From NCBI GenBank assembly GCA_003971905.1, contig RSEE01000009.1, positions 310,001 through 374,000 of the forward strand: a stretch of 64,000 nucleotides of DNA, read 5' to 3'. The notes under the pieces are model-generated. The model made no database searches. It worked only from the letters and a program-made list of their open reading frames with translations, and was not told the DNA's origin. This DNA is from Moniliella sp. 'wahieum'. Taxonomy: Eukaryota. The position numbers and the translations under genes were made by a program. Each line of letters starts with the position of its first letter. Within the stretch, counting starts at the first letter, position 1. Shown here piece by piece: positions 3,517 to 62,815 of the stretch.

Positions 3517-6317
3517 GGTGAACAGTCGTTGCCGGAGGTGGTGGTGGGTGGCGCAAAGGTGGGTCGGTTGTGTGGCAGGAAGCGCGGCCGAGGGGGGCAG
3601 GGGACGAGGGCACCAGGGCTGTGAGCCTGCCGAGCGCCTCGCTCGCTGGCCCCTCGCCGTGCCTTGGGGGGGGGAAACACTGCGCCCTGGCAGACGCACG
3701 GCTGCGCGCCCGGTAGGGTTAGGCGCGCGTGGACGACGTGCCACTCCCGGCCACTCCCCCCGCGGCCCAGGAGCGGGGGAGAGGCACAGCGCCAGCCGAG
3801 ACGGGGCACTGAGGCAATGCCAGGCGCGCGAGATGCATCGCAGAGGGCCGCTCCACCGCCTGAACATTTCATCTTGCACGCGTGGCAGTGACCTATCTTG
3901 CCGCTTGCCTCAGAAGCTCTCGCTAAAAATCTCCATCTCACCCATCTCACCCCCTTTCATCCTGCCCCACCACCCGTTGTGTCTTCGATCCACACGTGTT
4001 CAGCCCGACGAAAGAAAAAAACCGACAGCGGCCGATACATTCGTCCGGTCAACAAAACGGGTATGCCCTTGGGGCGGGAAGAGTGTCGCCTCACCCCCTC
4101 GCCCCACCGCTGTTCCATCCTCCAGACCACAACGTGCTTGGCTTGACGGTCAATCGGGCCAAAGAGATCAGCGTTCATCCGCTCAGCGTAACAGCAATCT
4201 ACAGCGGTGGTTACGCCTCCTCCACAATGGTCCCCAGATCCATCCTCCTGTGGGTTCCATGTGAACTTAGGGCCACCCAAAGGAGCCCTTTAAGGCACGT
4301 CCCTACAGGGGTGTGGTATCAATCATGGTCCACCTCACAGGACGATGTTCCCTGAGGTCCGATGATGCCAAGAGGCTTCACGTGCTGGTAGGGTCAACGC
4401 GGCTGTAGGGCGTGGTTCGCTTGGGTGGTGAGAACCACAACGGGAAGAAAAGGGAGGACAACCCCTATCTTTGGGGATACGAACTGGGAAAGAGTTGGTA
4501 CCAGAAACACATGATAATTTAGGCCCGAAATGGAAGAAGATGCCAAAATACCAAAGCAGAAACCGAGGCACAGGACACGGTAGCGCCACAGAGGATGGAA
4601 AGTGCACGAGTGGAGGGGTTCAGAGAGCAAATGGAGCGGAAAGTGCAGTAGCAAGCCCTGCACTTCACCCGTTAGCCATGCTGCGCATATGTACTAGAGT
4701 CTGCGGGACGGGTAAGTAATAGCGTATGCGCTATACAGCATGCGCGTTACCCTCATTGTGGCCGCGGGTGACCTCGGGGGGGAAACGAGTGTTGCCATGC
4801 CTTCCCGGATGGAATATAGTACACGCATCACATATGTAGGCAAAGCTGATGTGGCCCTTCTCTCGTGCTGGGTCGACTGGTGACAGGAAGACCAATATGT
4901 GGGTGCAGGCGGAGAGGGGAAGGAGAAAAAAATGTTGATATTACATGCGGGGGTGTCGGCTGTCTGATCGTGCTTTCGAGGAGGTGCGGGGGTGGGAGTG
5001 GCCAGGGGCAGCGGCGAGCTCTAGGCAGGTTTACGTGTTTCCTACCAAGTTCCGCATCCATAGCACTGGATCGTGTTTCGACGGGCAGCCAGGTGTGCGA
5101 TAGTTGAACGTTGGGACGTTGATGAGAGACGTGATGTTTTCAAAAGGAAGATATAGGGATCAGTGACTAGTATTATACCCCGGGTGGTACTGGGGACCCA
5201 GCGTGTGGGTTGCACCGAACTGGGATTGCACCGAACCGGAGAAGTTTGTGGGACTGCTGACAACTGGCATGTGCATGAGCACGCGCGCCTCTCTTGGAGC
5301 TTGAAGCTTCAAATTTCAAGCTTCAAGTCTTAAGTGGGGGAGGCGGTTCCCATGGAATTCCGTGGGGACTGGGGTTGAACGTGACGCGTGAACGTTGCAC
5401 ATTGAGACGTTGAGACGTTGTGGGCTGGTGGGGATGTGTGCCTGTGCTGCTGTGTCGATGGGCGCGATGTCGAGGAGCGCGCGCTGAGCTCAGCGCTGAG
5501 GCTGAGCGGCTGAGCGCTGGCTGAGCTCTGGGCGGCTGAGCAGCGGCGCGGGCGCTGGACACTCAGGCTGAGCTCACTAGGCCAAGCCAGCCGCCAGCAA
5601 ATCCTGTGCGTCACATCCGCGTGCGGTGTGCTGCATGTGCTGACGCCTGCTGCCGTGAGCGCGTGAGCCGCACTGGCCCTTCGCCACGTGGGAGTTCGCT
5701 CGGGTCCGCCCGGAACAGGCGGGTGCGCCGCTGCCCCTGTGCGGAGACGGGACCGGCTGGGGCGGGAGACGGGGGCCGGGCAGGCGCGGGGGTGTGTCCA
5801 CGCGGCATGGGGAGGGAGGATTCGATGGGGTAGATGACATGGGTGGCACGGCGGGCTCAGGCTCAGACTGCTCAGGCTGAACTGAGCTCAGCACGGACGC
5901 TGGGCAGCGGCTCACGTCCAGCAGAATGACAAGGCGCTGAGCGCTGCTCCGCGTTGGGTTACACCTTACGAGGCGGGGTGAGGCCGGTGAGGCCGAGGGG
6001 CCAGTGACCGGCGGGGCCTGAGATCAGGCGTGTGAGGCGCATTTCTCCCAGGCGGCAGCCGGCGGCTGTGTGTCTGGTGGGATTGGAAATGGGAGATGGG
6101 ACGCGGGTGGGAGCGCGGGCGCCTCGGCGGCGCAACTGTGTCGAGGGTTGAACTCAAGGTTGAACAACGTCGAGGTTAACACGGGCCCAGGCAGCAGGCG
6201 GCAGCCGAGAGGGCTCGAGCCGCCTGCTGCCTCTCTGATCCGCTGCCTCGTCCGCACAGACCCACGCGCCAGTACATTATCCATCCCCACGGCTGCACCC
6301 GATATCAGCTGTCACAG

Positions 6318-7708
6318 ATGCCCCCTTCTCCCTCCTCCTCCGCCGCCATGCTCCCCTCTCCTGCCCACGCCCAGCCCCCGCTCTACCCCATGCCCCCGGC
6401 CACCCCAGCCGCATCCTCCGCCCCTCGGCCCAGCTGGCTGCGCCGCCCTCTGCCCCTGCTGCCGAACCCAAGGCGCGCAACAACCCGGCCGCAAGCGGGT
6501 GGAAGATGTGCCGGCCAGCAAACGCGCCGCACAAAATCGGGCCTCCCAACGCGCCTATCGCGAACGCCAGCAAGCCCATCTACATCAGCTCGAAACCCAG
6601 GTAAAGACATACGAGACCCAATTTGCCCTCCTCAAGGCACACGTCGACTCGCTGCTCGCCGAGAACGGACGGTTGAAACAGGCCAATGTCGCCCTGCGCA
6701 CCCTTTACAACCACCCGGCCTCCCCTCCCTCGAGCTCCTCGGCCTCCTCGGACCAGCCCGCTGCCCTCCCGCCTGCGCCCGCCTCCCCACACGACGCGTC
6801 CCAAAACCATACCGACAAGCCACCCCCTACTACCCCACCCGCCCGCACCCACCACGACCAATCCTCCCACCCATTCCGATCTCGATGTGCCTCTCGTTCC
6901 TAGCGAGATGCCGCTTTCGGCCCTCGAGGGTCTGTCTCTGCCGCTCACTGCCTTTCCTTCACCCACCTCCCTCGCGCCGTTCTCTTGGACCAAACGGGAC
7001 GCTTCCTCATCGCCCTCGCGCACCCAACGCGAATCTTCTGCGTGTAGTTCCGACGGCCCTGACACTCACCCCCTCCGCCCGGACGCTATGGCAATGCACG
7101 TCCGCTCTCCTCGCTCTCCCTTGCTCCATCCTTGTACGTTCTCCCTGGCCCCCCTCCGTCGCATTGGGCGAGAACAGGATGCCATTCGCCGGGTCCCTGG
7201 CATGGAACTGGAAAAACCAGAGGACAGCCCCCTCCCCCAAGGGGGAGGGGAGGACAAGGGGACGTGCGGCGTATGTGGTGCATCGTCGGTTTGGAGTGTA
7301 TGTACCTGTGCTGGCGAAGACTTGTTCGACTTTGATTCCGTCTCGGAAGAGGAAAGTGGAAGTGGGGAGGGGAGACCGGTGCTCTTGCCTCGCTCGGGCT
7401 CGGGTACGGCGTTGCCCCCTGCCAAGCAGGAGCAGGAGCGGAACAGGGGCAGGAGCGGAAGCAGAAGAGGGAGCGGGAGCAAGAATGGGAGCAGGATCCT
7501 GAATCACTTCGTTCCTTGCCTCCTACAGACTTCCCCGATCCTCCCGAGGAACTCCCGTGTCTTCCCAATCCTCCTATCCCTCTCTTTACCCCGCCGCAAA
7601 CGAATGCGCTTCCCACAAACATCTTCGCTCCGAAGCCGATCCGTGCGATACGGAAACGACGAACGGACCTGCATCCAATCCCCGTCCTTGATCCAGTCGG
7701 CGGCTTAA
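6318..7708 (+). CDS. AP-1-like (Yap/HapX-type) bZIP transcription factor with a distal Cys-rich motif
   Basis: PGRKRVEDVPASKRAAQNRASQRAYRERQQAHLHQLETQV..L..ENGRLKQ (Yap-type basic region plus zipper, about 6480-6700). After a frameshift, CGVCGASSVWSVCTC at about 7265-7310. Confidence 0.85.
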
Positions 7709-9289
7709 CCGGGAGACTGGTCCTCCTTATGGTCTGACCTTTTCTCTGGACCCCTTGGTGTCTCCTGCCCTTGACCTTCAAGACGTCATCCCTCGTCTTT
7801 CCTCGACCCTCGAGCCGTTGCTTTTCACATTAATCCTTTCTTTCCCTCTTCGGTTTCCTCGTCCATTCTTTCTTGCGTTTTTCCCCTTCTTGCCCCCTTT
7901 CGCCTTTCGTCTTGTATGATCGAACTCTATCATTTCCCCGCCTCGCTTTACCCCCCCCCTCTCCTCCTCCCGCCGCGTCTCTTCCCAAAAGAAAAACGGT
8001 GCGCCTCGATCTCATCTGTACTGCCACATGACCAAAATGACCGATATCTTCCTATTGCCACCAATGCTCTTGCGTACGCCTCCCCAACGACCGCTTTCGA
8101 CTCTTGACTTCACGGGGTTTCGGCTGGGTAGCGAGGGGAAACAACTGGCCCAATAAAATAGAAGGAATCTGTAGCCCAATGAGAACCGAGAGGGGGGGAG
8201 CTCTCCTCGTACAGACCTTCCTTCATTCTGTGACAACTTGCGTCCGACTCCCCCATTCCTCCCCCAATCCAAGTACGCAGCACCCCACTACTCGGCTCAC
8301 CGGCAACCTGAATGGAACTATGTTTTGGTATAGACCAAAACGGGCAGGCTCCTCTCGGTACCACCTTCCCCCGGGCTTTATGTTCTCAGTGGGGGGTCTT
8401 TTATTTTCGCCAGACCTCCCATCACACACATTTCCTTCCACCTTCAAGCTTCAGGTCGCAGGTTGGTCCATTCTACTATGGGTCGAGGTTACCTAAACGG
8501 ATTCGAGAGGCTGTCAAGAATGGTTAATGCGGCTTTTGAAAAGCTTGAAGCTTGAAGCTTGACGGGGCAATTGAGCCAGATTGGGCCCCGCCCAAGTTTC
8601 GCAAAGCGATGGATTCAGTAGGTCCTATATAGGTAGGTAGGTACTCGCTGCTCGTTGGATTCAGGGTGTACACAGTCGTGTATTGTGCACCGAGCAGCAG
8701 ACCCATCACCGGGTGGGGCCAGAGGCCACCTTGTCGGATCGACAGGGCAGGCGCAGGCGCAGTGTGGGCAGGACGATGCGGTGAGCGTGGTGCGTGCCAG
8801 GTCAGGTGACCTGTTGCGCATGACATGGATGGAGGATGGATGATCATCGATCACTGTTATCATGCGCTGCAAGGGGGATGCAAGGGCTGCATGCAAGTGC
8901 CCTCTCCTTGTACCGTTCCGACGCGCCGGATATATGCCGACTGCTGCAATGATAGGCGACGATAGGCGACGGCAATGCTAGCCAGGGTGGCACTGCGTTA
9001 GAATCGTCCTGCTGCATCATCATCATGCATCCGCGTCGTCATGCATCCGCGCATCCAGCTCACCTGCCGCCTGGGCAACACGGGCCTGTTCGTGCTGCTT
9101 CGGTCACCGGTCGCCATATATATGTCACCTCTGTCACACTCTCGCCATTCTGAGCTCTTTGATCCTACCGCCGGCCCTCCTCTCCCTCCCGCCCCTTTAG
9201 ACCAAGGCACCCCCCGAGCCCTTCCTCTTCTGGCACCACCACCCCTTGCTCTCCCTTCGCTCCTTCCCCCGCACACACACACACCAACC

Positions 9290-14152: not shown

Positions 14153-14573
14153 GGGAGCAGCCGGACGAGCAGCCGCATGGGGTGGCCACGCAATGGGAGC
14201 GATGTGCAGTGCAAGGCGTTATAGATGCGTGGGACTTGCCTAGGTGTTCCATGTTATAGGCCTTGGGCGTCATAGGGTGAATGGCACGTGATCAGTGTGG
14301 GCATGCGACCTGCCACGGCGACCCCCTTCGCGCCCTTTCGCTTGAAAGTTTCGCCCCGGGACCCAGAAAAAAAAACGGCGGAATGGCGGAAGCGCACGAG
14401 GGGCAGCGCTGGAGTGTGGGCGACGCACACTGGCGCCGTGCGTGGTGCAAAAATCTTCGGCACCACGACCACGCTCGTCTTTCTCTGCTCGGCGTCCGCT
14501 CGCCTGCTCGCCTCCTTTTGCCTCAACCATCGACGCCGCATCCGCATCGCCTGCCTCCTGTGTGCTGCCCAGC

Positions 14574-16949: not shown

Positions 16950-17399
16950 GGAGGATACCGCACCAGTGCCTTGGCCCATGTTGCTACCGGTATCAAAACG
17001 CTTGCTGAATGCACGCCAGAGCTTACATCTGAGTCGGTTGAGTCTGTCAGTGAAAGTGTAGAGGATCGTATATAGGGAACTGTTTGGATCTATCCGTGGG
17101 AATCGCAGAGAGAGAAGAGAGGCGAAAGAAGGAAAATTGGATTTCGTCAATGCCTGGCACTTCACCGTGAAATTCGCAGGCTATAGCGCAAAAGTATGAG
17201 AAGCTTGGCGAAGGACACAATGACTTAAAAAAAGAAAGTGGATCGAAGCACGGGGGACAGACGGCAATGGTCAAGGCAGTAGTCACGTAAAAAGATAGGG
17301 AAATGATGATGTCTCGACGACGATTGGGCAAAGGGACCGGGGAGGCAGAGGGGGGAGACAAGAAAAGAAGCGAATGGCAGCAAAGAATCGTAAATGAGT

Positions 17400-20300
17400 T
17401 TACCACTGCGCACCAAACGCGCCCAAAAAGCTGCCCCAGCCTCACCGCCCACACCCCAACCGGCGGCGCCCGAGACGCTAGCAGACCCGTTAGCACCAAT
17501 GGCATCCTCGACGCTGGCTGCGTACTTCGCAGCCTCAAGGTCGCCCTTCAACCCGGCCTCAAGGTTCGCGCCCCAGTTGACAGCACCGGAAAGGCTTGCC
17601 GAGGCCTTGGAAGCAGCGGCAGCGGCAATGCTGACTGCCTGTTGCGCCGGTGGCAACGCCACCGTCGACGTCAGCGCCGACACTGGCAGCGGCAGAGAGC
17701 ACCAGCGGATGCCTTGGCAGCAATGGCAGCCTCGACGCTCGCCGCATACTTCTTGGCAGCCTCAAGGTCGCCCTTCAGGCCAGCCTTCAGTTCAGCGCCC
17801 CACTTGACTTCACCAGACAGTTCAGCGGAGGCCTTGGCAGCGGCGGCCGTGGCAATGCTGACAGCCTGTTGCGCAACAGTAGCAACGCCACCCTTGATGC
17901 CCGCACCAATGGCAGCCTCAATGCTCGCCGCGTACTTCTTGGCAGCCGACAGGTCGCCCTTCAACCCAGCTCCAGGTCCGCGCTCCACTTGACAGCACCG
18001 GAAAGATGAGCCGAGGCCTGGGCAGCAGCGACCGTAACAATGCTGACCGCCTGTTGCGCAGTCGCAGCAGCACCACCCTCGATGGCAGCGCCGACCAGCA
18101 GCCACCGAGACGCCAGCCGATGCCTTGGCAGCAATGGCAGCCTCAACACTCGCCGCGTACTTCTTGGCAGCAGACAGGTCGCCCTTCAGGCCAGCCTCCA
18201 GTTCAGCGGACCATTGGACAGCACCGGACAGATAGACCGAGGCTTGGCAGCGGCGGCAGCGGCAATGCTGACGGCCTGTTGCGCAGCGGTAGCAACGCCC
18301 CCTGGACCTGGGCGGCGGCCGAGACGCTAGCGGATACGTTGGCAGCGATGGCAGCCTCAATGCTCGCGGCATAGTTCTTGGCAGCCGAAAGGTCGCCCTT
18401 CAGGCCAGCCACCAGTTCAGCAGACCATTGAACGGCACCGGAAAGATGAGCCGAGGCCTGGGCAGCAGCGATCGTAACAATGCTGACGGCCTGTTGCGCA
18501 GTCGCCGCAACACCACCCTCGATGCCAGCACCAATGCTAGCGCCGACACCAGCAGCCACCGAGACGCCAGCCGATGCCTTGGCAGCAATGGCAGCCTCAA
18601 TGCTCGCCGCATACTTCTTGGCAGCTGACAGGTCGCCCTTCAGGCCAGCCTCCAGTTCAGCGGACCATTGGACAGCACCGGACAGATAGACCGAGGCTTT
18701 GGCAGCGGCGGCAGCGGTAATGCTGACGGCTTGTTGCGCAGCGGTAGCAACGGCACCCTCGACATGGGCGGCAGCCGAGACGCTAGCGGATACCTTGGTG
18801 GCAATGGCAGCCTCAATGCTCGCCGCATACTTCTTCGCGGCCGAAAGGTCGCCCTTAAACCCAGCCTCGAGATCGGCGCTCCACTGGATGGTACCGGAAA
18901 GGTGGGCCGAGCCTGGGCAGCAGCAGCAGCAGCAATGCTGACAGCCTGTTGCGCAGCCGTGGCAGCGCCAGCCTGGAAACTGGCAGCAGCCGAGACGGCA
19001 GCCGATCCCTTGGCAGCAATGGCAGCCTCAATGCTCGCCTCGTACTTCTTGGCAGCCGAAAGGTCGCCCTTCAACCCAGCCTCCAGGTCCGCGCCCCACT
19101 GGATGGCACCGGAAAGATAGGCCGAGGCCTTGGCAGCAGCACCGGCGGCAATGCTGACGGCCTGTTGCGCAGCCGTGGCAGCGCCACCCTCAATGCCAGC
19201 ACCGATGCCGGCACCAATGCCGGCGCCAACACTAGCCCCGCCCGAGAGACCAGCCGACGCCTTGGCGGCTTGCGAAGCAGCGACGCTAAGCGCTTGGTGG
19301 CCACCAGCCGAGATGCCACCCTTCCAGCTGGCAGCAACGCTCGCGGCGCCAGAGACAGCGGCGGAAGCCTGAGCCGCCTCGGAGACGGCAATGCTAGCGG
19401 CATGGTGTTGACCAATCGAGAACCCGGCGGAGGCCTTGGCAGCTTCCGAAACGGCAATGCTGGCAGCGTGGTGACCCGCAGCCGAGGCGCCGGCCTGCAC
19501 CCCGGCACCGATGCTAGCAGCCCTGTGAAGCGCCTCGGACGCACTGGCAGAGAAGGCAGCACCAAAGCTAGCCGCTTCTTGAGCCGCCTGCGACGCACCG
19601 GCAGCCAACGCACCCGAGGCGGCAGCGTGGAAACCAGCGGCAATGCTGGCCGCTTCCTGCTCCGCAGCAGAGACGGCAGCGGCGATTGAGGCCTTGTAAG
19701 CCCCGCCACGGCTGGCGCCGAACTGAGCAGCAGCCGAAATGGATGCCTGGGCCGCCGCTGCGGCGCTGGCAGCGTGCTGTTCAGCAATCGAGAGGCTAGC
19801 CAGGACCGCACCGTCGCAACCCTCGGAAGCACCGACAGAGAAGCCACCGTGGGCACCTTCAGAAAAGCCGGCCGACGCCTTGGCACCTCCAGCGGCCGAG
19901 ATAGCCGCCGACTTGCCAGCCGAGAAGCCCGCCGACTTACCAGCCGAGAAGCCCGCCGAGGCACCGGCCGACTTGCCAGCCGAAATGCCTACAGACTTGC
20001 TACCGCCCAAAGCCGACCGACTTGCTACCGCCAGCGCCAAACGACGCACCAACCGATTCCGCGGCCGATGCACCAGCGGATTCACCGAGAGAAACGCTGG
20101 CATGGCCACCTGGGGCCGCGTGAGAGGAAGCCGGCTTGACGTGCTCGATAGAGGACGACAGGTGGGGCGTGAGAAGAATGGTGCGGCTTGGACGGAGAGT
20201 GGGCCGAGTGCGATTTGTGGACCTTGTGCGACTCGGAGACGAAGATGACCCTTGTGCGACGGGTGAGAAACAGGCGACGAAGCAGGGTGGCGGTGGTGGG

Positions 20301-20898
20301 AATGAGAAGAGGTGTCAGGGAGGGAGGTAGACCAGCTACGGGAAAGGCCCCAAGTAGTGGTGGTGCCAGTGCTCGTGGCAGTGCTACTCGCAGCGCTCTT
20401 GGCCGTCGAGGCGCTAGCCGCCACACTCTTCGCGGCGCTCTTGGCCGCCGAAGCGCTTGCACCCTGAAGAACGGAGACGGAGAAACCAACGTTGCCGCCG
20501 GCGTTGCCACCGCCACCAAGGACAATTCCAAACTCGCCGAACGGGTTGGTCACGATGATCGACTCGGAGAACTTGGCAGCAACTTTCCAAGAATCGGAAG
20601 CGGACGCAGCAGCAGCAGCCGTCGCACCGTTCTTGCCGATAGCAAACACCCTCGCTGCGGCTGACGTCCCATTGCTCCGAGTCGGAAAGGTCGAATCCGC
20701 CACCGATCTGCAAACCAGGCAGGTCCAAGCTTTGGCCCACTTCAAGGTGATGGCAGCCGAGGCAGCAGCGGCAGCAGCCGCATGAAAGAAGGTCACGACG
20801 AACACCGTGGTGACGACGGAGACGGGAGGCGTTGGGGTCCGCAACCACGCCCGTGGCGGCGATGGCCAGGCGAGGGTAACGAAAGGAGTGAGGTGCAT
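17400..20898 (-). CDS. Large secreted Ala/Gly/Ser-rich tandem-repeat protein (about 1150 aa), function unknown
   Basis: 752-aa ORF plus downstream frames. Hydrophobic N-terminus then RR dibasic sites (across an indel), His/Ser linker, SAGK/SAGF repeats, and 8 repeats of about 190-240 bp (AQQAVSIA..KASA.LSGA.QW.A.LEAGLKGDLSAAKKYAASIEAAIAA). Probable stop after FGAQW at 17400. Confidence 0.85.
17480..19200 (-). repeat. Eight coding tandem repeats inside the secreted Ala-rich gene
   Basis: The anchor AGGTCGCCCTT (+ strand) recurs at about 17538, 17765, 17951, 18177, 18390, 18630, 18847 and 19061. Confidence 0.92.
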
Positions 20899-22306
20899 GA
20901 GAAGAGAGTGTGTGGAAAAGAACGTGTGTAGGGGAGGTAAGGTAGGAGGTAGCCCTCTGTGCAGATACGCGGGAGGGAAGGGGGTGGAGAGATGGGGGTG
21001 GGGGGAAAGAAGAGGGAGAGGCGAAGCGACGAGAAAATGAGGGGAGGATGGGATGCTAGTGCAATATTATAGAGAGGTAAGATGATCTGGGGTCGATCGG
21101 CGGCTCACGTTGAACGATCGTTTGGCTTTGGCCCGAATGTCTGCGCGCCGGCACCCAGCGCTAGGCAATTGCAGGTAGGGCGCTGCGGCTGAGCGCAGAG
21201 CTTTAGACTCATTCAGCTCTGGCCGACTGGTGAGGCCACCGTGATTTGGCACAGTCGATCGACGGGGCGATGAAGGGAAGCGTCTGTTGTGGTGCACCCA
21301 GCGCCATATGCCTCTGCTGCGATGTGCACGCCCTGAGCCTCAGGCCTGAGGCCTCAGGCCCAGGCCTCGCGCCCCCCGGCCCTCCGGAACGCCGTGACCA
21401 GGGTTGCCTGTCCCCCAAGACCAACGGCTGGAGCTCAGCCTGAGTGCCGAGCCGATGAGTACTTAGAAACAGTAACGTGCCGCGGAGCGTAGTAAGCGCA
21501 GTAAGCACGACGCGTAGTAAGCCTGTCGGCGCACCGCAAACTAGCCACACCGGCCCAAGTGGTAATACGTACAGCGTGCTGTAATATAATGTGCTGCACT
21601 TTCAATGTGGAGCCAGCTTCTCTGGAAAGGAAAGCGAGGCGACTAGAGAAGCTAGCGACGCTGACGGAGGCAAGGGAGCACCGGGTGAGTGTGTGGTGAC
21701 AGGAGCATCGGACGGGGCAAGGGGTAGAGCGTGAGTGTGCGCCCCAGTCCCCAGTTGCACACAGTTGCACCTGGATCTGCAGCCGTCACGCGTGCGGCGG
21801 GGGACAACCAGTGGGTGGAGGTTAGGGGTGGCCGCTGGCCCGTGCCGATACCTCGGGGGATCGGTGACCGGTGGCCGGTGAAGCTGGTGAAGCACGGTGC
21901 ATGGCGGTGACGCGGTGATGCGGACATATGAGACACGATGCATGGGATCTGCGTTATGAGATGGGTGATACCGGTGGTCATCGGGAGCGCAGGGCAGTGC
22001 ACACTCTGTGCTCAATCTGGCACTCGCACGCAGCCTCAGCCTCAGCCGCTGTGGCTCGCACAGTGTACCAGTGCCAGTATGCTCAGGCAGCCAGAACAGC
22101 AGCACGCGGCCGCAGTCTTCCCATCTCCGAGTCTGGCCGGGCCGGTCGGTTGTTCCTGTAGTGTGGCTTGCACCCACTCTTCCCACTTTCGCGTGGCTTG
22201 GCAAGCGTAACCTTTCCGCGCTAGTTCCTTGCGTTTGGCGTGGAAATGTACCGATCTATACGTAATGTGGCCAATATGTTAGGCCTGTTGGCCCCGGGCC
22301 CGCATG

Positions 22307-23689: not shown

Positions 23690-25683
23690 GCATGGGCCTC
23701 GAAGCTGCCCCAACCGTGTACGGTGCTGCATTTGGATTGTTGGCGCCCAACCCAAGCCTTCTCCCTGTGCCCAGCCTACGCCCACCGAACGTCCAAACCC
23801 CCGCTCAACAATCAGTTGATTCGATCAGTGGTCCCTCCAAAGGAGCAATTCAATATTCAGTACATTCAGTACTCGGCGAGCGATCATCGATCACTGGGTC
23901 ACCACTAGTCACTGGTCACCGGCCGGTCACCACCTTCAACCTCTCAAAGGGTTCAAGCTTTTCCAACCTAATTTACACACGTCGCTTGGTAACCACGGTC
24001 GCAACCATATGCTGCCCATCCACCCGTTCTTGGAAGATCATATGGTCGATCATCAATCATCAATCATCAATCATCGACATCAATCATTAATAATCGAAAT
24101 CATCAATCATCGTGTATTCTGATCGCTGATTCATCATGGATCTTCGGTTTTTCATCAATTTCATCGCCTTTCGCCCCCCCCTCCCACACCACAGTAATGA
24201 CCCTCTCCACTGCTTCGCCCTGAGTATGACCGCGGTGACTCTGTGACTGGTGCACTTCTGAGTCGTTGAACGTTTGTTGAACGTGTTGAACGTACGTTGA
24301 GCCTTCGGGAAGCCATGATTTAACAGGTTTTGGGGTGCACGAAACGTTCTAAATATTCATCATCATGCATCGCATGTCATCGTCATCACGCACGAGTAGG
24401 ATGTGCCGACAAGAGTCACAAAATGCCGTCTAGGTAAGGATGCTATACGGATGGTACTGGCCACCTCTTGTGCTGTTCCTGTGCCGGTGATCCATTTCGC
24501 GTGGTGGTGTGAAGCTTGTGAAGGGTTCGACTGTTGACCTCTGGTCATTTATGGCCAAGGTCACTTCCGAGTGACATCATGTGTGATGCGCGTGTGATGT
24601 TTTCTGACGTGGCGTTTCCGACTCCATGATGACTTGGATTCGCCACCGCCTTAGCAATTTGATCTCCATCGACCACCATTCCCATTTGCTGCTCTTTGAG
24701 CTCTTCCTGGGCGTTAATATACACGTTCAAGCTTCAAGAGGAACAAGGAACAGTGAGATGCCGACATTTGTCACAAAGGATTCTAGGCCCTGAAAAGCTT
24801 GAAGCAGCCTGAAGCACAGAGAGGCACAGATGAAGCTTGAGATGTAGTGTCCTGATCGAGATCGACCTGAGCTTGGTCCAGGCTTGAGGGGCTGACGCTG
24901 GGTGCCCCCAGGTGGTCGGTGGCCAAAGAGCCGATAGAGAAGCTGAAAGATCGGCAGACGGAACCGAGTGCATCCCGGTGGCACTCCGAGACCTATGCCG
25001 AAAGACAGATGAATTCGATAAATGTATTGATTCCGTTGTAGAGAACTTGATTACATCCTGTGGGCCAGACGCAGGAGAAACGGGCCGGTATAGCCAGGTG
25101 TGGGTATAAGCGCTAAGCGCTAAAACCCGAGAAGCCGAAACAGTTTGGTGCAACGATGCCGAAGAGCAAACCCTGTATGACTGGACGAGCTCGATACCCC
25201 GCAGGATCTTCAAGCTTCTATTAGCTTCAATAATCTTCTAGCCTCTCAAGCTCCAAGCTTCAAGCTTCAACCTTCAAATTTCAAACTTCATAGCTTCATC
25301 GATCATCCAGTGCCACGACGATTATGCTTTGAGATCGACAACGCTCGACAGCCTGAGCTTTCACCTTTTGCGCAGTGACATTGACAGTGACTAGTGTGAG
25401 GAGTACTAGTGGTAAGGGTCGGGCGATACACGTGAGAGCCAAGTGCCAAGCACCAAGGAAAGCAAAGGATACACTGTTGGTAGCCGGCAGAGAGAAGGAG
25501 ACAGGATCGGCGAAGTGACAATATTTGCCCGGTGATTAGCTGCGAGGGCCATGCCAGAGGCTCACTAACTTAAGCACCTGTGAGTCGCTGAGCGTTGAAC
25601 CTCAGCTCAGCGCGCTGATTAATGATTCTTGCTCGGATCATTCGGTCCCGCAAACCACCGGGCCATCCAATCTGTCATAGATC

Positions 25684-28600
25684 TCATAAGTTGGCGAGTT
25701 TCACTCCCATTTCCAATTTCTCTGAACCGCCCGTCTCTCATCTCTCAGATCTCAGATCTCATCATTCTTTTCCCTGTCCTTTTGGCCCGTGCTCTGTCCA
25801 TGTTAGGCTTAGTATCCACCTGCACGAACGACATATGACACAACCTATTTTTTGCCTAGTTCCTGCATAATGCAGTGGCAACTATTACAGAACCGTGCAA
25901 TGTGTGCGATCGGGTGTGTCACAGTCGGAGAAAAGCGAGGAGGGAGACCAGAGTGGGGACTCGGCCAAGGGATATATAACAATCGTTCCTCGTTCCTGGG
26001 AAGAAACAATAGCAGATGACATGTTGCGAAGCGGAAGAACTGGGAAGGGGTAGACGGTCGGGACGAAGAAATTGGAAATGGGAGCGAGGTCAGCCAAACT
26101 ATGACAAAAACGGGCCCGAAAGGAAATGACTCTTCTCAAACGCCAAAATTTATGCCTATATGTTGTAACCAACATCTTTGACAGAGCTAAGCCTGTGGGA
26201 CAAAGAAACGCTGCAACCAAACCGGCCTGCTCATCCGGCGTGTGTGGTTTGTTGGGGCCAAACCCGCCCTTTACGGAACGAGGCCGGAAATCGCCAGCAG
26301 ATCAGGACCCTCTGGTACCCACGCCGTCCGTTCCCATACCCGAGGTGCGCGTGTGGATACGAATGAACAGGGTATAGACATCTGAGATCTGAGGGGTGAA
26401 CCATCTCCATTGAGACTCAGTACTTCATTCTTTCCAGTGCCCAAACATCTTTTGCTCGCCGCCTTGGTGCCATAGTGTCCTCGCGTTGTTGTGAACATCA
26501 ACAGGAAGAAAGGTTCTTGGCTGCGGCCCTGATACTTATAGTTTTGGAGAACAGCCAACTAACGAAGTAACTGAAGGAAGGGGATTGCTTTGGATATGCT
26601 GATGATATTCAGTCAGGCAACATGTAATGTGGTGCCTTCTACCCCAGAGGAAAAGGAGAAGCAGTCATACTGTAAACAACACATGATGAGACACACGCAC
26701 ACAAAGGCATCAATGAAGAACTACAACAGGGTCATATGCCGCGATGGGCAGACCCGTCAAGCAACATGACGCACGGACGGTATATATCTGGCTTCAGATC
26801 TTGACGGAACCGAGTGGTTAAAGAGGCGCGCAGGGAAATCCTTCTAGTGTGGGTGTTGTGTCAGGTGTCGCATGTCACACCTAGACCGCAGCCTGAGGCC
26901 CGCCAGGAGTTTGGGGGGGATGCATCCCTACATTGAAGGCCGCAAGGGTCGACTCACGGTAGGTTCGTGCTTGGGTTTGCTGCTGAATCCGAGCAGGGCT
27001 AAGGACAAGGAAATGTTTCTCAACAGTGTATGGCCGAAGGGGCTGCGTATTGTGCGGCAAGGCTGCGTAGAGGCAGTAAGAACCGTGTCTGAAGTCTTTG
27101 TTCCCACTTGGCCATGGGAAAAGTGGCAGCGGAGGACAAGGTTGCCCAAACTTGGAAGTCTAGAGCGGGAACCGGGAACATTGAAGCTGTGACGCAGAAC
27201 AAGTAAGGACTGAAAACTCCACGGATTGAATACGGGAAAAGCCGAACACTTAGCTGCTGGATAAAAAGCTGCAGCTAAAAGAGATGGCAACATGAAGAGA
27301 GAGCCGGAGAGGGGGAGAGCAGAGGAGGCAACAAAGAGAAGAAATCCGGTTTGTACCATATGGATTGAAAAAGGTGGAGCCGCCAATGGATTGAAGTATG
27401 GAAGGTGAAGACAACAATGGAACGTGGAGGAGACCCATGAACCATTGCTTGTAGTAGGCAGGGATCAAAAAAGGGAAACAACAACTCACAGTATCACTAC
27501 CGACCCCTTTTTGATAGTGTACACACGTCATCAATATCCATCGTGGCCTTGATGTCGCTGATGTCAGAAACCTTATTTATTCTGACATCCAGGATGTCAG
27601 CGCCATCTCGGCTCTCCCTTGCTATCCTCGTGTCAAGGACGCGAGTGAGGTCAAATCTGTTATCGGCGATCACAACGACAGTGCCATCAGTCTTCCAGCT
27701 TCGATGTTCAAGCAAAAGACAATGGTCCCTGGATCTGCTTATGCAACCTCGATGGTGGCCGGTCAGAGGGGTCTTTGTGCGAAGCGATGGCCTTGTGTTC
27801 CGCCGCTGTTCCGCCTCCTTGGATGTGTTTGCCGCGTATTCGCTGCTTCGCGGAAGTTGACCAGCGATGGGCCAGACATTCATCAATCACACCACTACTT
27901 TTCTTTGCATCTCGTCCAACTGAGCGATCTGTGGGCGACCGCTATGCGCCTCACTGGGAAGCCACCGGGCCCCGGCCCGGTCTGCTGAGGCTTCGCCCCA
28001 GCCTGTTGGGCTGGGTCACCGTTGCCACCGTAGCCGCCGTTCCACTGGTCCACCGGTCCACCCTTCCACGCTGGAACCCTTCCACGCTGGAGAGACAAAA
28101 TAATATCACCAACGAGGAGACCACCGGGCCTACGGCCCGGTCAGCTCTTCGCCCCAGCTCGGTGCTTGGCCGCCACCTTAGCCACCGTTCCCCCTAGAGA
28201 TACGCGCTGGCTGGGTGGACTGGAACGTGGCACGCGTCAGCTGATGTAAAAGTGTACAGGGGCGTTTCTCATGTCCCATTTTTTCACCCGGCCTCACGTA
28301 GTACGAAGAGTACTAGAGTACTGGTGGAGCTAGTGACTAGCGGCTAGTGAAGCTTGAAGCTTGAAGAGCTAGTGAAGCGAAGCTTGAAGAGATTATCGAT
28401 TGGTATGAGATCTGAGAATCGCAGTAGGCGATCAGTCGATGGCGCGCAGGCAGCGGGGTTGTACTGGTGCTCTCATGCGGCCCCGTGCGGCGCCAGCACA
28501 GGGGCTGTGTAGTGTAAGGTGCATCCCAAAGCATCTAAATACGATGGGCGTGAGAAAAATGGTCTCGTCGGCCTGAGCAAACGAGCAACTCATGTAACGC

Positions 28601-29850
28601 CGCAGGCGCAGACCGCGTACCGGAAGGCGGTACCTGAGAGCACCGCGACGCCTTTAAAGCTCTGTCAATGATAGGGATGCAGTATAGAGAAAACTAGAAC
28701 TCCACTCCTCCTCTCAGTGGCATGGTTCGGTGTAATCGTAATCTAATGTCCTTGACCCAAGTTGCAGCACGGTGTTGAGCAACCGGGTGCCTCCTTTGTT
28801 TTGTCCAACGTCTCCAATCGCCGGCGCCCCAGTATAGGGTAAAGGCGTAGTGCAAAAGCGTGGAACCTTCCTGGTCATTCCTTCTAATACTCCTTCCTGG
28901 AAGGCACAGGAGTATTCTCTAGTCTCTGTATTTTCTTGACTCTTGTTACGAGGCGCTCCGGTGTCTCCCGACGCAGAGCCCCGCATGTCATAGGCATCTC
29001 TTACTAGCACGTCAGCCTCTACATAGGCTAGCAAGAGAGAGCTTATTATCCATGCAGCTGGCATCCTTCGCAACCCGCTCAATATGATATGAGCGCATGG
29101 GTAGGATGCTTTGTTCCCATTGCGCCCACAGTCTTGGCAGAACCCTTTGTCTGCTGCGGCCCACCGGACCCCGCATCTGACAGAACAGACTGCGCTTTAT
29201 GCCTTAATATTGTAGCTCTCTCTTGCTAGGCTATGTAGAGACTGACCCCTTTGGAAGAGATTCCTACGAAATGCGGGGCTCTGCGTCAGGACATAGCGGA
29301 GCGCCCCGTAACATCTCTGTAGCTCATCCGCTCATGTGTAAAATGCAATACACCGTCAACTGCTTGCTCTCTGGTCTTTCACATCATTATTCAGCCCACC
29401 GCGGACACGGTTCCATGCGCTAGTATGTCCGTCGAAGCGGAGGGTGCACTACACAGTGCAAGTACTCGCGCTATCTGTGACAGTTGCAGCACGGTTCGAT
29501 GTGGCGTATACCAGGCCAAGCGCCAAGCGCCAAGTGGCGCCACTGTAGGGAAAAGGCGCAGCCTAAGCGCGGATGCTTCCTTATCAATCCTTCCAATATT
29601 CCTTCCTGGAGGGCAGGAGTATATTCTCTAGCCTCTGTAGCTCTCATGTGCAAATGTTTAGTAGCACTATGTCACAGTCGGGGCTAAGGTGAGGGAGACC
29701 AGGATCGGACTAGGCCAAGGGGTAGCAATCGTTCGTGGGGAAGAAGCAAGAACAGAGGACATGGTGCGAAGTGGAAGGAACAGGGAAGGAGCGAGACGCT
29801 CGAGACGAAGAAATTGGAAATGGGAGCGAGATCAGCCAAACTATGACACA
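25684..29850. repeat. Patchwork of locally duplicated and inverted, degenerate gene-like fragments
   Basis: 25980-26107 resembles 29725-29850 (direct), with an inverted partial copy at about 25684-25740. 28944-29042 is inverted against 29215-29313. About 28845-28930 resembles about 29555-29640 (direct). Confidence 0.8.
26870..28265 (-). pseudogene. Degenerate copy of a gene-plus-upstream unit also present at about 47214-48270
   Basis: Shared blocks: ggtcgactcacRgtaggttcg.gcttggg (GTGAGT donor on the - strand), ggcaaggctgcgt, cttcgccccagc..gccaccttagccaccgttcccc, tggaacgtggcacg..cagctgatgtaaaa.gtg.acaggg. Confidence 0.6.
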
Positions 29851-44627: not shown

Positions 44628-45758
44628 CGAGTAGCATTAATGATGGGCGTCGCAAGCAGCCCCCGCGCCCAGCCAGCGCCACCGCGCCAGTGCCGAGGCC
44701 CGCCCCGATGGGATGCATGGCGTGGGATGGCGTGGGCTGGCACGGGACAGCACTGGCCCACCCCCGGCCGGGCACTGCAGGGCACGCGGATGCCACTCGA
44801 CGGCCCGCAGCACGCATGCTCCAGCATGCTCCTGCCGCGGCGTCCTCGACGGCATCCACATGCTTGGGCGCTGCCCCCGTGCTACGCCCTCGCGCCACCG
44901 CCCCCTGGGCGTGGCCCAGTGCGTCGGCGTGGCTGCCCCGAGCGCCCAGTGCCTATCGCTGCGTTCCCTTGCGATTCCGGGTGGCGCATGAACAGTGCCC
45001 CCTGCGCCCCGTGCGCCCCGCGACCCACATGCATTGGTCTGTGATGATCGATCATCGATGGGCACCGATCAGGTCGGTCATCGATCACGTGCAGAAGACA
45101 TTCCAGCGTCAAGCTCCCAAGAGGAAGAAAATGGGAAAAGTGAAAAGTACCTCTCATCCACTCTCCTCCTCCACCGCCCCGGGTCTGTACCACAGTCCCC
45201 GTGTGACTTGTAACTAGCCACTTCAGATCTTCAGAGCAGACCGACGAAGATGGGTCCACATCCCATCCTTGCTGTGATACCGCCCGGCTCACGCAAACAG
45301 CACTCCGGCATCAAGACGGGCCCAGAATGATAAGCGTAGCAGAGACTAGAAAACATATATAGGTGTGATAGCACTCTGCACAGTAAGTGCAAGTACGCAC
45401 ACGGCACTAAGTCGCTGGGACTGGGAGGCCCGGAAGAATGAAGAACTTGGTAGAGATGAAAGCGGTGGATGTGGGGAGAAGGAGGTCTCCTTTTTAGTAT
45501 CACAATTAGACGACATCACCTTTTTTGTAGAGAAAAACGAGCCAATTGTCAATTCATTCAAAAATATATAGTAGGTGCGATATATGGTGGAGAAGAGACA
45601 AAGGCAAAGAAGAGACGGAATCGATCTGACGGAGGAGAGGAAAAGCTCAGAGGAACTCTGTACAGTAGCTCACTAAAGAAACAATAAATGGCAACACTCA
45701 GCGGGGAAACTTTGGTAATATAGTATGGCCCAGAAATGGAGGGAAAATGAGGACTTCT

Positions 45759-46223: not shown

Positions 46224-46456
46224 TGATGAGACCTGGAGTCCAGATGGTCCTCGAGGGTGATGCAATCGCACTAGTGGTGGTGGTGGTGGTCTAAGCCAAC
46301 CAGCAACGCCTACTGAGGAACATCAGGCAGCGAGTCGCCACCAGGGGCTAAGCTGCGGAACAAGGAAAAACAGGAGAGAGAAAAAACAACGGAACTCCTA
46401 GGCCTGAGGAGGAACTGAAGGGACATTGGCCAAAGCACGAGCCACCTGGCTCAACA
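46224..46456. mobile_element. Solo LTR, family B
   Basis: TGATGAG...CTCAACA termini, 233 bp, perfect 5-bp TSD ACAAG (46219-46223 and 46457-46461). A second copy lies at 1-159. Confidence 0.9.
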
Positions 46457-48270: not shown

Positions 48271-50349
48271 AATGGAGGAATATATAACTTGGGATTAGGG
48301 ATGTGCGAAGCCGGCGGGCCTTCGCTTGAATAGAACCATCTGGTGTCCACCGTAGAGCGCAAAGCCGGGCTGACGTGCATGACACCACAAGTATTCGCGA
48401 AAAGGCGCTTTTGCCAAAAAAAACCACCCACACCCGTGCACACACAAATACAAAAAATGACATCAACAAACTCGGAAATGTGATCGGTGAAGGTAGTGAA
48501 GTCTTTTACCAAATAACAGCTAGCTAGTCTGCAGCTGCAAACAAAACCGACAAAAAGGATGGGAGTTCTAAGGGCAGGACACCAGGACCCGCGGTCACGC
48601 GATCACGGGGAGCGCGCGCTTCCAGGCCAGGTCACCGGTCTCACTAGTCAGCTAGTCAGGCCTGAGGCGCTGAGGCCTGTTGGCCGCCTGAGGTGACCTC
48701 AGGCTATTATTAGTCACTAGTCACCAGTCACTAGTCACTCACCTCAGGCTGACCTCAGGCCGGCAGGATTCTCCCTAGGCCTTCTCAGATCTGTAATCGG
48801 GGCCTCAGGCCTCAGGGGCTATGACTGTCGCATGATCCACAGGCAAAGGTGTCCCAGGTCACCGGTTCCCCTCAGCGCTTCCGCGTCACCCCCTCCGGCC
48901 TGAGCCTCAGGGCCTACTGGTAAGGGCATCAGATCGACTTTAGACCTGCCATGTGACACCAAACAAAACATGCCCGCCACCACAACCACCACACCAGACC
49001 GCACCTCCGCTTCCCCTACCATTATGCATACAATGCATGATGAACTACTAGTTACTAGTTACTAAAAAATATTGTCCTTGGTCGCGGCACCTAGCTTAAG
49101 GAGCTTGAGGGGCGGGCCGTAGTACTCAGTTACGACTTAGGACTAACGAAACCCCCTTGAGCGAGTGGCCTGGTTTTGCTTATTGTGGGAAAGGAATAAG
49201 GGGGGGGGGGACATGTGACATGTGAAGAGGCCCAAAGAGCTATTGCTGTGGGCTTGTAAGCGCTGAGCCCAGCGATCGGGAAACGGGTTGGTTGGTCAAA
49301 AGGATGGTCGATGGGGGGGGTCTGGGGGTTCTTGCGCGGCTGAAAAGAACCGAGCGAAAGGGGGGGCGATCGATATGTAAGCAGTGTGGACCCTACTTGC
49401 CCTAACCTACCCAGTAAACATTGGTAACGTGTAAACAGAGGCACAGAGCTAGCGCAGGCCAGCGCTTTGCTGGTGGGGTTGCCCAGTCACGCGCACGGTC
49501 ACGCGATCGTCAAGGGTCGCCTGTCGCCGGTCTCGATCATTGCATGCGCCACGCGTCACACGTCAGGCTTCAGCGCGCCAGGCCTCAGGTCGCTCTCGGG
49601 GGGACTGGAGGAGGGCGGTGTAGTCTGGCGCTAATTTCAAAGTGTGTGGCGCACCCACCCGCGCCCTGGCGGGGTTTCAGGCAGGGGTAGATCTGCGGCG
49701 GTGACCGGTGACATGTGACAGTGACAGTGACTAGTGACATGTGACATGTCAGCATGTCGGGGAGTAGAGGCACTCAGGCGCTCAGGCCAGCGCCTCGGGC
49801 CAGGGGGCGTGGGAGGGTGTGAACGTCGGCCGAGGGCGCGTGCCGTCAGTGTGGGGCATGGGGTGCGTTGGACGCTGGGTGGCCTGCAGGCGGCACGCCG
49901 CATGGCGCTTGTGCCGACTGGCGCAGCAGCCCTGGCGCCAGCCCCCGCCCACTGTGCTCTGCGGCCTGCCGGGGGGGGGGCTGAGGTCTGAGACTCAGAT
50001 CTGAGTCTGAGGCAGCACCTTGCATCATGCATTCTGCATCATGCGTCGGCTGCCTCCCCCGTCCAACGTCCAACGTACTATAGCGTCCAGGCTGCTGCCC
50101 CGGCTGCCCCCCTGCCCAGGCACGGGAGTGCCCTGGCGCTTTGTGTTCTGCGGCTCGGCTTTGTCAGGCCCAGCGGTGATGTCTGTGGCATATGCATGGC
50201 ATGCTGCGATCAGCGCAGCAACGCTCTGTCGCTCAGCTCGCACGTCTTGATCTTCACTGGTCACCTCGACTGCTCAACGCCAACCCACACACCGTGCAAG
50301 AGGCCGTGCACGGTCTGCCCCACGCAGTGGGCCTGGCCCAAAGCCGCAT

Positions 50350-56800: not shown

Positions 56801-58415
56801 GCTGGTGGGGGGACTGACGGTGATGGAGGGGTGATGGAGAAGGTAGGGGTAGCGGAAGGTGCTCCGCTCCGGCCCTCTCCACAGGCGAGTGTGAGATGAT
56901 ACGAAGGCGATAATCGTAATCAATCTTCAATGTTCAATGTCCAACGTTCAATCTCCGTTGGATCGGTGCCTGGCTGATAGTGCGCCGATACATGAGGCCG
57001 CGGGTTATGCACTGTCCCGGTGCCGCATGAAAATTTTGTCACGCGGTGCAAACGCCGTTCGGCAAATCCGGACATCCATTTCCGCCGTCTGCCCCGCGGC
57101 GCACGAGGACGCACTCGGCACAATGAGGCCCTGAGGCCGGACGCTGAGGCGCTGAGGAACCTGAAGCCCTGGGGCCTCCTGGGGCCTGGAGCCCTGATCG
57201 ACCTGATGCATGATCGATGCAGTAGAGGACGTGCGTCTTGGCAAGCCCGCTTAAAGTATACCAAGGTACACAGTACGTACGAGTACTCAAACACGCCTGG
57301 CAAGCGCACGCCAGCGCCAAGCCTTATCAATTATCGCCAGCCACAGCAAGCCTGGGCTTGGAGAGAGTGCTGCACAGACTTCAGGTTGTTCGGTGAGTCG
57401 GTGAGCCGGTGACGCCGCTTAATTCGCATACGTAATAGGCTCCACACTCGCGCGCTGTGCGCACTCCCTCTCGACTCCCAGGATCTCTCTCCATCTCAGA
57501 TGTCGCAGGCCTGAGGGAACGAGGGGCCGGAGGGTCATGCTCAAGAGACATTCGCCTTACTAGTTACTCCATCGTCCTAGCCATGATTCGTGACTATAGG
57601 ATCTTCTCTTCCGATATGACCGATGACCGTCGGTGACCGTAACCATCAATGTCCGCGGCGGAGCGACCAGACGCCCTCCAGACTGGACCCACCAGGTCTT
57701 CGCTCCGTGTCATGACCGTTCTCGTGCCTGTTTCTCTGATTTGTCCCTTTCCTTAGTTCTTACGCGTTACGCCTTAAGGGGGTGGGGCAGGGGGGCTTGG
57801 GCCTTATCGGTCACCAATGATGTCTTCCTGGCGTAGTCACTCTGTCTGGCCTTGTTCCACACCATCATAACATTCAACCTCTGTTTTGCCGTAAGATAGT
57901 CCCTGAGATGCATATATTAGTAGCCGATACCTAAATTGCCTCTTTTAGCGTCGACACCTCAGCAACGTTTTCAGGTACCAAGCTCCAAGCTTCACCTGCC
58001 ATAATAAACGCTCCAGCGTCCAACCTCCACAACCTCCACAAGCCCCAAGCTTCAGCCTGCTTCATGTTTAACCACACTGAGAGAGCCACAAGGTGAAAAA
58101 ACACTTTTGAGAGAAGACCAGCGGCTCGCAGAGACGCAAATGCGATTTATTGTGTAGGCGAGAGCTGAGCCCCTCAGAGCTGAGGCTCAGCCCTCTCAGT
58201 GGCGCTCAGCCTGAGCGCTCAAGCGCTCAAGCCGGCAGGAAGCACATGTAATCGATAATGAAAACGTGCACAACACATGTATGTATATTCTGCGGCGATA
58301 TGTGTCTCATATTCTCAATGGAGGATGGATGGTGCGGTGGTCCAGATGTGCACACGAAGAGAGGGGATGCTATCGTAACAGTAGAGACGATATATAACGC
58401 TGAAGGTCAGTACGG

Positions 58416-61780: not shown

Positions 61781-62243
61781 ATGGTCAGCAAGGAGGCCAA
61801 CGCGGCGGCGTACGAGTACGACCCACGTATGTATGCGTTTCCTTAATTTGTGCTTCCGTCTCTAACATCTGGGATCTCTGGCGGCGGCGAATGGCAGGAC
61901 CCTCAATCCGCTCATCTTCCACCTCAGCGCCCGCCCCAGCACCGAGGCCTCTACCCAAGCTCGACTTGCGCTCCATTCCTCTCCCGCCGGGACCTGCACC
62001 CCCTTCGGCTAGGATTGAAGGCTGGACCGAAAAGGACGAGCCACCATCCTATTGGAGTGGCAACGAGTCCTCTTCTGCGGCTACGACCGCCCCAGCCCCC
62101 GCTCCCACCCCCGCCTCTGCAACCACCCCGCTCCTGCCAGCAAGGGCGGTGTGATTGCCTCGGCGGCACCAGTGCTACGGGACCTGCAGAAGGAGGCGGC
62201 TGTTTTTACGCCTGCCAGTGTACGCCGGAAGGCACGGGAATAG
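61781..62243 (+). CDS. Small Pro-rich protein ending in a WBP11/Saf1-like C-terminal motif
   Basis: MVSKEANAAAYEYDP, a GTATGT..CTAAC..CAG intron, LRSIPLPPGPAP, then (across an indel) VIASAAPVLRDLQKEAAVFTPASVRRKARE*. Confidence 0.65.
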
Positions 62244-62815
62244 CTTGAGTCATGCATTGTAACGCCATCAGCGACTATGCCGTCCCAAAGAGCAGCAGGA
62301 AATGGACCGAGCGAACTGTGGGTAGTTGAGCGCTCGCAACCAGGTTGGTACAGTTTGGCCAGTCCACGCTCCCCCGCCAGAAATGGCTGATGGATGGGGG
62401 AGTCACTCTACGCGGCAAGCAGAAGCTCGTCACTTGGGCGGAGTAGTATTTTGACCCCCTCGGTACAGCGATTCGCGTCGGAGTTTTGAGATGGTTGGCC
62501 TCGATGCCCGATGGGCCTCTTGTGCAATATGAAATGGTCCATGTGACACGAGAAATTGAAATTGAGCGGAAGGGACATGATGCATGATGCATGATGCATG
62601 AGATCTGGGACAGTTCTCACTTGAGTGTGATATTCCGTGTCGTGATGCTTGTGACATGTGACATGTGTCATGTGACGCCGCATGTCACATGTGACACACC
62701 CTGGAGACTGAACGTTCAAATTGAACGTGGGTGGCTTGGGCTGGGGCTACGCTGAGCAACATCAGCCTCGGTCGCAGGCTCGGCCGCGTTCAGCAAGACC
62801 CGCATCCTCCCCGCC

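Follow-up and report, generated by a model that had tools for sequence, protein, structure and literature searches.

Seven-base T-N-A-centred palindromic units in a Moniliella genome as probable excision footprints of a transposon lineage

Introduction

The hAT, Transib, RAG and MULE systems are known to form hairpins in flanking DNA (PMC5499845), and Artemis opens hairpins mainly at position +2 (PMC2175297). Here we analyze seven-base units, each a 4-bp palindrome joined to a T-N-A trinucleotide, in a 64,000-nucleotide stretch of Moniliella sp. 'wahieum' (hereafter the window; contig C9:310001-374000 of a 69.5-Mb assembly in 223 contigs) and in the rest of the genome. The units are probably excision footprints, able to extend themselves, of a cut-and-paste lineage that has terminal inverted repeats (TIRs) and 7-bp targets centred on T-N-A, and a family with ends CTCACTG...CAGTGAG and an EnSpm-like remnant (hereafter the CTCACTG family) is the best candidate for the agent. 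Opening of a hairpin two nucleotides from its tip would give exactly these 4-nt palindromes, and we infer that this may extend to the fungus studied here.

Footprints of Ac/Ds at empty donor sites in Candida albicans, yeast and plants likewise combine short palindromic insertions with deletions; they are explained by flanking hairpins followed by end joining, and a few types dominate in C. albicans (PMC5873905). Ac footprints, however, centre on the complement of the base adjoining the element, whereas the palindrome in the present units has its centre at the flush end of a 7-bp duplication, and the known Ac/Ds cases are single experimental sites, whereas here there are tens of thousands of fixed scars. 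For RAG and Transib together with Artemis, opening at +2 yields a 4-nt palindromic 3' overhang, as the scars require (PMC5499845, PMC2175297), but the clade containing Transib duplicates 2-5 bp, whereas here the duplication is 7 bp, the ends are CTCACTG and the hairpin opener would be a fungal one. That clade, CMCT, comprises EnSpm/CACTA, Mirage, Chapaev, Transib, Plavaka, ESTA as well as Lanisha, with duplications of 2-5 bp (PMC12730594); in Cryptococcus, CNEST duplicates 2 bp and CNIRT6 3 bp (PMC12810828), compared with 7 bp here. The length of 7 bp is matched in a basidiomycete by hAT7 of rust fungi, from a hairpinning superfamily (PMC12730594), but hAT7 carries a hAT transposase and the CTCACTG family shows no hAT similarity. 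Footprints with palindromic (P) nucleotides are thus already known (PMC5873905). In the literature searched, whose coverage left out most subscription journals and Repbase Reports, we found neither genome-wide scars of such scale and stereotypy, nor their growth into microsatellites, nor a 7-bp EnSpm-like family.

Results

A preliminary description of the window had reported arrays in which 4-bp palindromes alternate with TGA or TCA, and 12 of 12 such arrays were found in place. The window contains 124 instances of T[GC]A-N4-T[GC]A, compared with 44-87 at spacings 0-3 and 5-12, and 59 of the 124 units have a palindromic N4. This is far above shuffled DNA, because local shuffles keeping 2-, 3-, 4- or 5-mers gave means of 3.8, 3.9, 4.6 and 10.1 palindromic units and a maximum of 21 (120 shuffles). 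Outside the window the pattern continues: at least one unit was present in 39 of 40 scattered 10-kb stretches, 464 kb held 349 units in which all 16 palindromes are used, and the whole genome matched AAGCTT-S-AAGCTT-S-AAGCTT 1055 times and the reversed pattern 0 times. Extrapolation from 250 scars in 400 kb gives ~43,000 genome-wide. The pattern is a real, genome-wide mutational signature.

Two details needed revision. The units had been described as lying in mixed orientation, but non-direct units are a minority (13/59 in the window, 42/349 in the 464 kb), the direct ones making up 307/349 (88%). The spacer had been given as TGA or TCA; these are the strongest centres, but the true fixed word is T-N-A and includes TAA/TTA. 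Rule-fitting units (the rule is given below) number 19.8 per 1000 sites at TGA/TCA, 12.2 at TAA/TTA and at most 2.2 in the other 30 trinucleotide classes. Weak secondary centres, TGG/CCA and TCG/CGA, were seen in the 464-kb sample and are mostly templated from the T side (TGG 14 left and 7 right; TCG 9 left and 2 right). An apparent extension of the target motif (A at -5) disappeared once in-phase neighbours were removed.

The observation that arrays are missing from coding regions held up. No unit lies within the 26.3 kb of gene spans in the window, which were drawn by hand, compared with 73 outside them, and when 400 kb were ranked by coding likeness with a model trained on window frames, the most coding-like fifth held 10 units and the least coding-like 173. 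The simplest account is that exons lack scars because an addition of seven bases shifts the reading frame. The avoidance also bears on the possibility of a long-read basecalling or assembly artefact. Small indel errors are indeed frequent in this assembly and reading frames are broken inside genes, as such an artefact would have it, but the units avoid exons although frames break there, 73 of 154 units recur unchanged in a second genome copy diverged by 3%, and units are common to many copies of one transposon; we give an artefact very little credence. Selected protein-binding sites in promoters, either TGA-N4-TCA or clustered half-sites, would likewise be limited to non-coding DNA, and several clusters lie upstream of genes as judged from the sequence. 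However, the exclusion from exons is explained by frameshift, the flanks predict N4, which occurs in all 16 palindromic forms, and inverted TGA..TCA units make up just 26/349. Units also arise within transposon copies, and substitutions are about as frequent inside units (31/1112) as in their flanks (338/9707; two-copy comparison). Because under half of the units are shared between the copies, without clear conservation, the shared TGA-N4-TCA binding architecture put forward earlier is most improbable as the source of the pattern, and some arrays could have been recruited secondarily as binding sites.

The second genome copy allowed us to see how units differ between copies. Every region tested is present as two copies, C38:258000-322000 (reverse) being the partner of the window at 97% and the other loci aligning at 90-93%; two copies ~3% apart in substitutions look as in a hybrid or heterozygous strain. 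An alignment with C38 of the window, extended by 60 kb, was combined with those of six other pairs (140 kb in total, 3.0% substitutions). Already before the six extra pairs were included, indel lengths peaked at 7 nt (41, compared with 33, 31 and 13 for 5, 6 and 8 nt). The 7-nt differences follow an exact rule: a site ab-TNA-cd is turned into ab-TNA-(rc(ab)ab or cd rc(cd))-TNA-cd, where rc is the reverse complement. This applies to 23 of 54 7-nt indels and to 20 of 39 when only clean ones are taken (9 of the 23 are left-templated, 11 right-templated and 3 either), whereas it holds for 225 of 5000 random tandem duplications (4.5%) and for 3 of 5000 random insertions (0.06%).

Of the 23 indels that fit the rule, 20 lie at asymmetric sites and include inverted bases. 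New units of an ordinary slippage microsatellite are direct copies, so these indels are not of that kind, and the exact flank-templated rule that new units follow supports the earlier suggestion that they come from one hairpin-linked mutational process and not from independent slippage. At symmetric sites slippage could still give the same units. Among 153 isolated TCA-P-TCA units (P, the palindrome), the palindrome mostly matches the two flanking bases on one side only, and on this ground plain duplication of symmetric 7-mers was rejected as the main route. A Sleeping-Beauty-like footprint, which would be a 4-bp palindromic duplication around an element-derived TGA/TCA, was rejected too: in most cases just half of the second palindrome is there, and the units run in direct orientation. 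The derived state can be read at a few loci: one LINE-like (long interspersed nuclear element) copy at locus L091 carries a rule-fitting 7-nt insertion, 1 of 11 CACTA copies carries an insertion of the 9-nt class described next, and the inverted arms at locus L087 differ by two rule-fitting 7-nt insertions.

We then scored joints in 562 kb, at asymmetric sites, by the length of each predicted hairpin overhang that is kept; the classes partly overlap. One whole overhang is kept, from one side or the other, at 140 and 146 joints, compared with 4 expected from scaled counts at other centres, and a whole overhang plus two bases of the other flank is kept at 14 and 14 joints, compared with 1-2 expected; joints with both overhangs whole numbered 0 in the 562 kb. 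Within the 9-nt class, 27 of 55 cases have their two free bases identical to the left flank (40 of 172 at other centres), the chance value being 1/16, and among clean copy-pair indels 3 of 15 of 9 nt and 1 of 14 of 8 nt fit this class. Two bases stand between the halves of 46 TNA-centred full 7-bp duplications, and 32 of these hold an inverted copy of an end. The minor 9-nt class therefore has both T-N-A flanks duplicated, as after a 7-bp staggered insertion. A target duplication retained to either side of the joint is characteristic of hairpin-type excision footprints, as are inserted bases that are inverted flank copies, or P nucleotides (23/54 7-nt indels and 32/46 2-nt inserts). A class with element-derived CT/AG left in the scars was not found. 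Survival of an overhang seems to depend on its sequence: in the same 562 kb, AG was copied 44 times and lost 13 times, and TA was copied once and lost 14 times. Scarred sites are also struck again in phase, since 128 of 285 reconstructed targets have another TNA 7 bp away (nearby background, 15%) and spacings other than 7 and 14 are at background level.

These joints bear on copying by template switch or fold-back during replication at T-N-A, in which five bases forward and two backward would be added at one nascent end and slippage would extend the product. The dominant 7-nt class taken alone can be written as five direct and two inverted bases, and slippage can lengthen pure arrays. On the other hand, the iterated template-switch copying suggested earlier accounts for the data less well than a break with two ends, since the minor class duplicates both T-N-A flanks; a polymerase error offers no reason for strict T-N-A specificity and leaves the matching element duplications described below a coincidence. 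In a metagenome comparison, moreover, at least 121 loci with the same heptamer repeats did not show the rule in their flanks (17 of 19,320 T-N-A sites, 0.9 per 1000, compared with 12-20 here). We consider template switching improbable.

An element with the matching target was found in the same genome. A search by end pattern, among the first 100 of 318 matches, gave a 4.85-kb element on C11, and its right end used as a DNA query gave 20 matches from 19 candidates. All five two-ended copies found by this DNA similarity are flanked by exact 7-bp NN-T[GC]A-NN duplications, namely GTTGATG on C34, GATCATG on C23, CATCAAC on C35, GTTGATG on C29 and GATGATG around a short copy of 378 bp on C20, T-N-A being 3.6% of positions; a resident element whose duplication matches the scars is again what footprints call for. 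The five copies are placed at C34:500340, C23:154552, C35:43991, C29:72158 and C20:546811, and further element sites are C38:472882 and C149:779. Single ends that had been found without the T-N-A pattern abut NN-TNA-NN in 4 of 5 cases, while ends on C12, C15, C4 and C16 had been selected by pattern and are not counted. Matching ends on C8 and C23 (L278:85-101 and L271:95-110) differ by two bases between target and end, and these two bases are an inverted flank copy and also a repeat of the first bases of the element.

The TIR of the C11-type element is ~80 bp long and 93% complementary, with short repeats behind it. The three full copies that were read are 97-98% identical, frame-broken and share one inserted solo long terminal repeat (LTR). 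One of their frames resembles the C-terminal half of EnSpm-type transposases: in an atlas search its first match was a basidiomycete cluster named DUF4218 (score 0.95, with recognition below threshold), and a relative, P0121 (E 3.5e-4), aligns with a frame at locus L072 that adjoins a below-cut-off PF02992 match. The N-terminal catalytic part was not found in the element copies read, and there were no longer homologues of the remnant at E<=0.001 among 1550 candidates. The CTCACTG family is like the CMCT clade in the CACTG within its TIRs, in its subterminal repeats and, tentatively, in a remnant resembling the C-terminal part of DUF4218/Tnp2 with an H-x3-H motif. CMCT termini, however, are mostly CA..TG, whereas here the outermost bases are CT..AG with CA..TG two bases inside, and the duplication is 7 bp centred on T-N-A rather than 2-5 bp. 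With its 7-bp duplication and CT..AG ends, the family would thus work like a CMCT element and yet lack two features of membership.

Other transposons were checked as the agent. The window itself holds, at 27495-31723, a 4.23-kb non-autonomous CACTA element with TIR CACTACCGACCCCTTT, which is missing from C38 and has ~10 full copies elsewhere; its own flanks do not match exactly, and a repeat of ~180 bp is inserted at ~29670-29850. This family was rejected because 2-bp duplications flank it at all eight of the other loci where both ends are present, and a CACGGGCG-ended element at L087 was rejected for its 2-bp duplication as well. Old inverted arms at L087:690-990 and 7100-7613, 6.9 kb apart, enclose the latter element. 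Unlike Ac/Ds, which are hAT elements, no hAT dimerisation domain could be connected with the scars: a genome search with PF05699 scored two candidates, both weak, under the cut-off and in ordinary genes, and no hAT similarity was found in the frames of the CTCACTG family, so a hAT agent was rejected. When 970 kb were scanned for exact TIR pairs flanked by duplications of 4-10 bp, only an internal repeat came up.

An EnSpm-like gene lies at L071:3880-6940 (PF02992, 51.7 bits, above the cut-off) and occupies the same place in both genome copies, L071 and L086 (C17 and C62); judged from its sequence and position, it is possibly domesticated. A second EnSpm-like gene, at L072 (PF02992 below the cut-off), is separated by 9.5 kb from the CTCACTG-family copy on C34. 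Long TIRs were found around neither of the two PF02992 loci, L071 and L072, and protein searches with both returned, apart from each other, just the L071 counterpart on C62. Such a gene brings in the main rival to excision, in which a host-retained EnSpm-like transposase or nuclease would make 7-nt staggered breaks at T-N-A, hairpin the ends and write the scars directly, with no element involved. It would suit the vast excess of scars over elements, the presence of L071/L086 in both copies without a long TIR and the strong in-phase re-hitting. We nevertheless regard it as unlikely, since a family with the matching 7-bp duplication exists, and nothing links L071 with T-N-A, a different CACTA family here duplicating 2 bp. 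Duplication of both flanks would also need fill-in before the hairpins form, which insertion followed by excision would supply naturally.

The individual features of the window are as follows. Several arrays differ in length from their C38 copies: the AGCT/AATT scar array at 5298-5325 is longer by one 7-nt unit, a difference off the exact rule; the GGCC array at 21340-21360 is longer; the AGCT array at 32253-32288, a symmetric site, is longer by one unit; and at 62652-62722, where ACGT/AATT units adjoin a CATG array, the latter is longer by 21 nt. The TGA-CGCG-TGA-ACGT unit at 5382-5395 is shorter in C38, and the GATC array at 25745-25761 has 9 nt more there. Two scars are missing from the C38 copy, a single left-templated TCA-AGCT-TCA at 8444-8453 and, at 21491-21508, a 9-nt-class scar with the full AG-TAA-GC duplication and two inverted bases between. 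In the mixed CCGG/CATG/CTAG array at 49702-49751, the window differs from C38 by 7 nt, the left-templated CTAG unit, and beside the TCGA units at 45045-45087 it is C38 that carries an added TGCA unit, right-templated, at 45042. Conversely, the unscarred TGA site at 1942-1950 carries a left-templated 7-nt unit in C38, and similar unscarred sites with a 7-nt unit in C38 are at 2359 (TAA), 24118, 26397, 36469 and 40574. The GCGC units at 58200-58230 are identical in both copies. The remaining features are AGCT (8542-8562) and TGCA (62578-62605) arrays, a long degenerate TCA array with AGCT, AATT and TCGA (25256-25305), an irregular CTGAG/CTCAG cluster (5480-5520) with one inverted TCA-GCGC-TGA unit at 5490-5499, and CTAG/AGCT/GATC units at 28330-28415 within the 4.2-kb CACTA element, whose number varies among element copies. 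CTAG/GGCC/GCGC arrays occupy 48641-48737; the array described earlier at 48714-48737 is there, but one of its units is the non-palindromic CCAG.

Eight of 16 scanned window frames have fungal domains (bZIP, SNF2, eIF2A-type WD, kinase, zuotin, RNase PH, API5 and DnaJ). The zuotin has relatives at 50-80% identity, and its top named matches are basidiomycetes. A small GTPase gene at 2729-3560, which from its N-terminus we take to be ARF-like, matches nine further places at 81-88%, eight of them paired, giving ~5 paralogous loci per genome copy. A long alanine-rich repeat protein gene at 17200-21066 (minus strand) has internal repeats of 215-240 bp and no Pfam match. Solo LTRs of an abundant ~230-bp family (TGATGAG...CAACA) lie at 1-160 and ~46225-46455, the second being missing from C38; an alignment of 20 copies of the first showed no seven-base arrays.

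Discussion

Excision of an element with a 7-bp target would lead to the observed units in five steps. The first is seen in the extant copies: insertion of the element takes place at ab-TNA-cd, and those seven bases are duplicated. On excision, each flank would then be sealed as a flush hairpin in the manner of Transib or RAG. A host nuclease would open the hairpins two nucleotides from the tip, as the anatomy of the scars suggests, so that the left side would end in cd+rc(cd) and the right side in rc(ab)+ab, each a 4-nt palindromic 3' overhang. End joining would mostly keep one overhang and trim the other, giving TNA-palindrome-TNA and a gain of 7 nt, and partial trimming would give the classes of +8 and +9. 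Finally, the scarred sites, which are observed to be re-hit, would be struck again by the same process. Because the scar makes one TNA symmetric, the overhangs there would be compatible and the same palindrome would be added again, while a hit at the asymmetric side would add a different palindrome and so produce the mixed arrays. Slippage probably helps to lengthen the pure arrays.

Several observations weigh against this explanation. With regard to the units, the flank rule leaves inverted (43/442) and other unlike (35/442) T-N-A pairs unexplained, and plain 7-bp duplications of asymmetric sites show no excess (41, compared with 44). Off the exact rule are 31 of the 54 7-nt indels, 2 fitting the TGG centre only and 29 neither; by eye, several seem one substitution away, and these were not counted. 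A comparison of two copies gives no direction, insertion or deletion, and in the test with CACTA copies 4 of 13 minority-allele 7-nt rows passed, all at symmetric sites, which is weak evidence because slippage yields the identical product there; three majority-allele rows are a single site. The scar evidence is assembly sequence, and the assembly is noisy, with 1046 one-base gaps in the copy alignment. With regard to the agent, the sixth two-ended copy, the C11 element that served as T-N-A-pattern seed, has unlike flanks, and the single end on C8 is two bases off NN-TNA-NN. The three full copies hold no intact transposase, and their frames have no Pfam match. In the aligned copy pairs there was no CTCACTG element, and a site occupied by the element in one partner but scarred in the other was not seen. 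The bases flanking extant ends are narrower in range (TG next to the element in 10/28) than those of the scars, and ~43,000 scars compared with 19 candidate ends imply that each element would need very many hops.

A wider picture, which we put forward tentatively and hold to be rather less likely than the footprint explanation itself, is that an undescribed lineage of the EnSpm/Transib clade hopped tens of thousands of times while its copy number rose little, returned to its own scars and so acted as a self-templating writer of non-coding DNA, building microsatellites and remodelling promoters, possibly driven by a transposase that the host has retained. We know of no biochemical test of flank hairpins for EnSpm.

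Footprints are usually seen singly in experiments, whereas here ~2% of all TGA/TCA sites bear one stereotyped scar, and 7-nt differences of the rule form are a leading class of multi-base indel between the genome copies. As footprints, the scars would be a dense fossil map of past insertions. If the link with the element holds, they would reveal a route from transposon excision to the birth of microsatellites and allow hairpin opening and end joining to be read out statistically in a fungus. They would also be indirect evidence that an EnSpm-like transposase forms flush flank hairpins like those of Transib and RAG, and the target-duplication range of the clade would widen from 2-5 to 7 bp.

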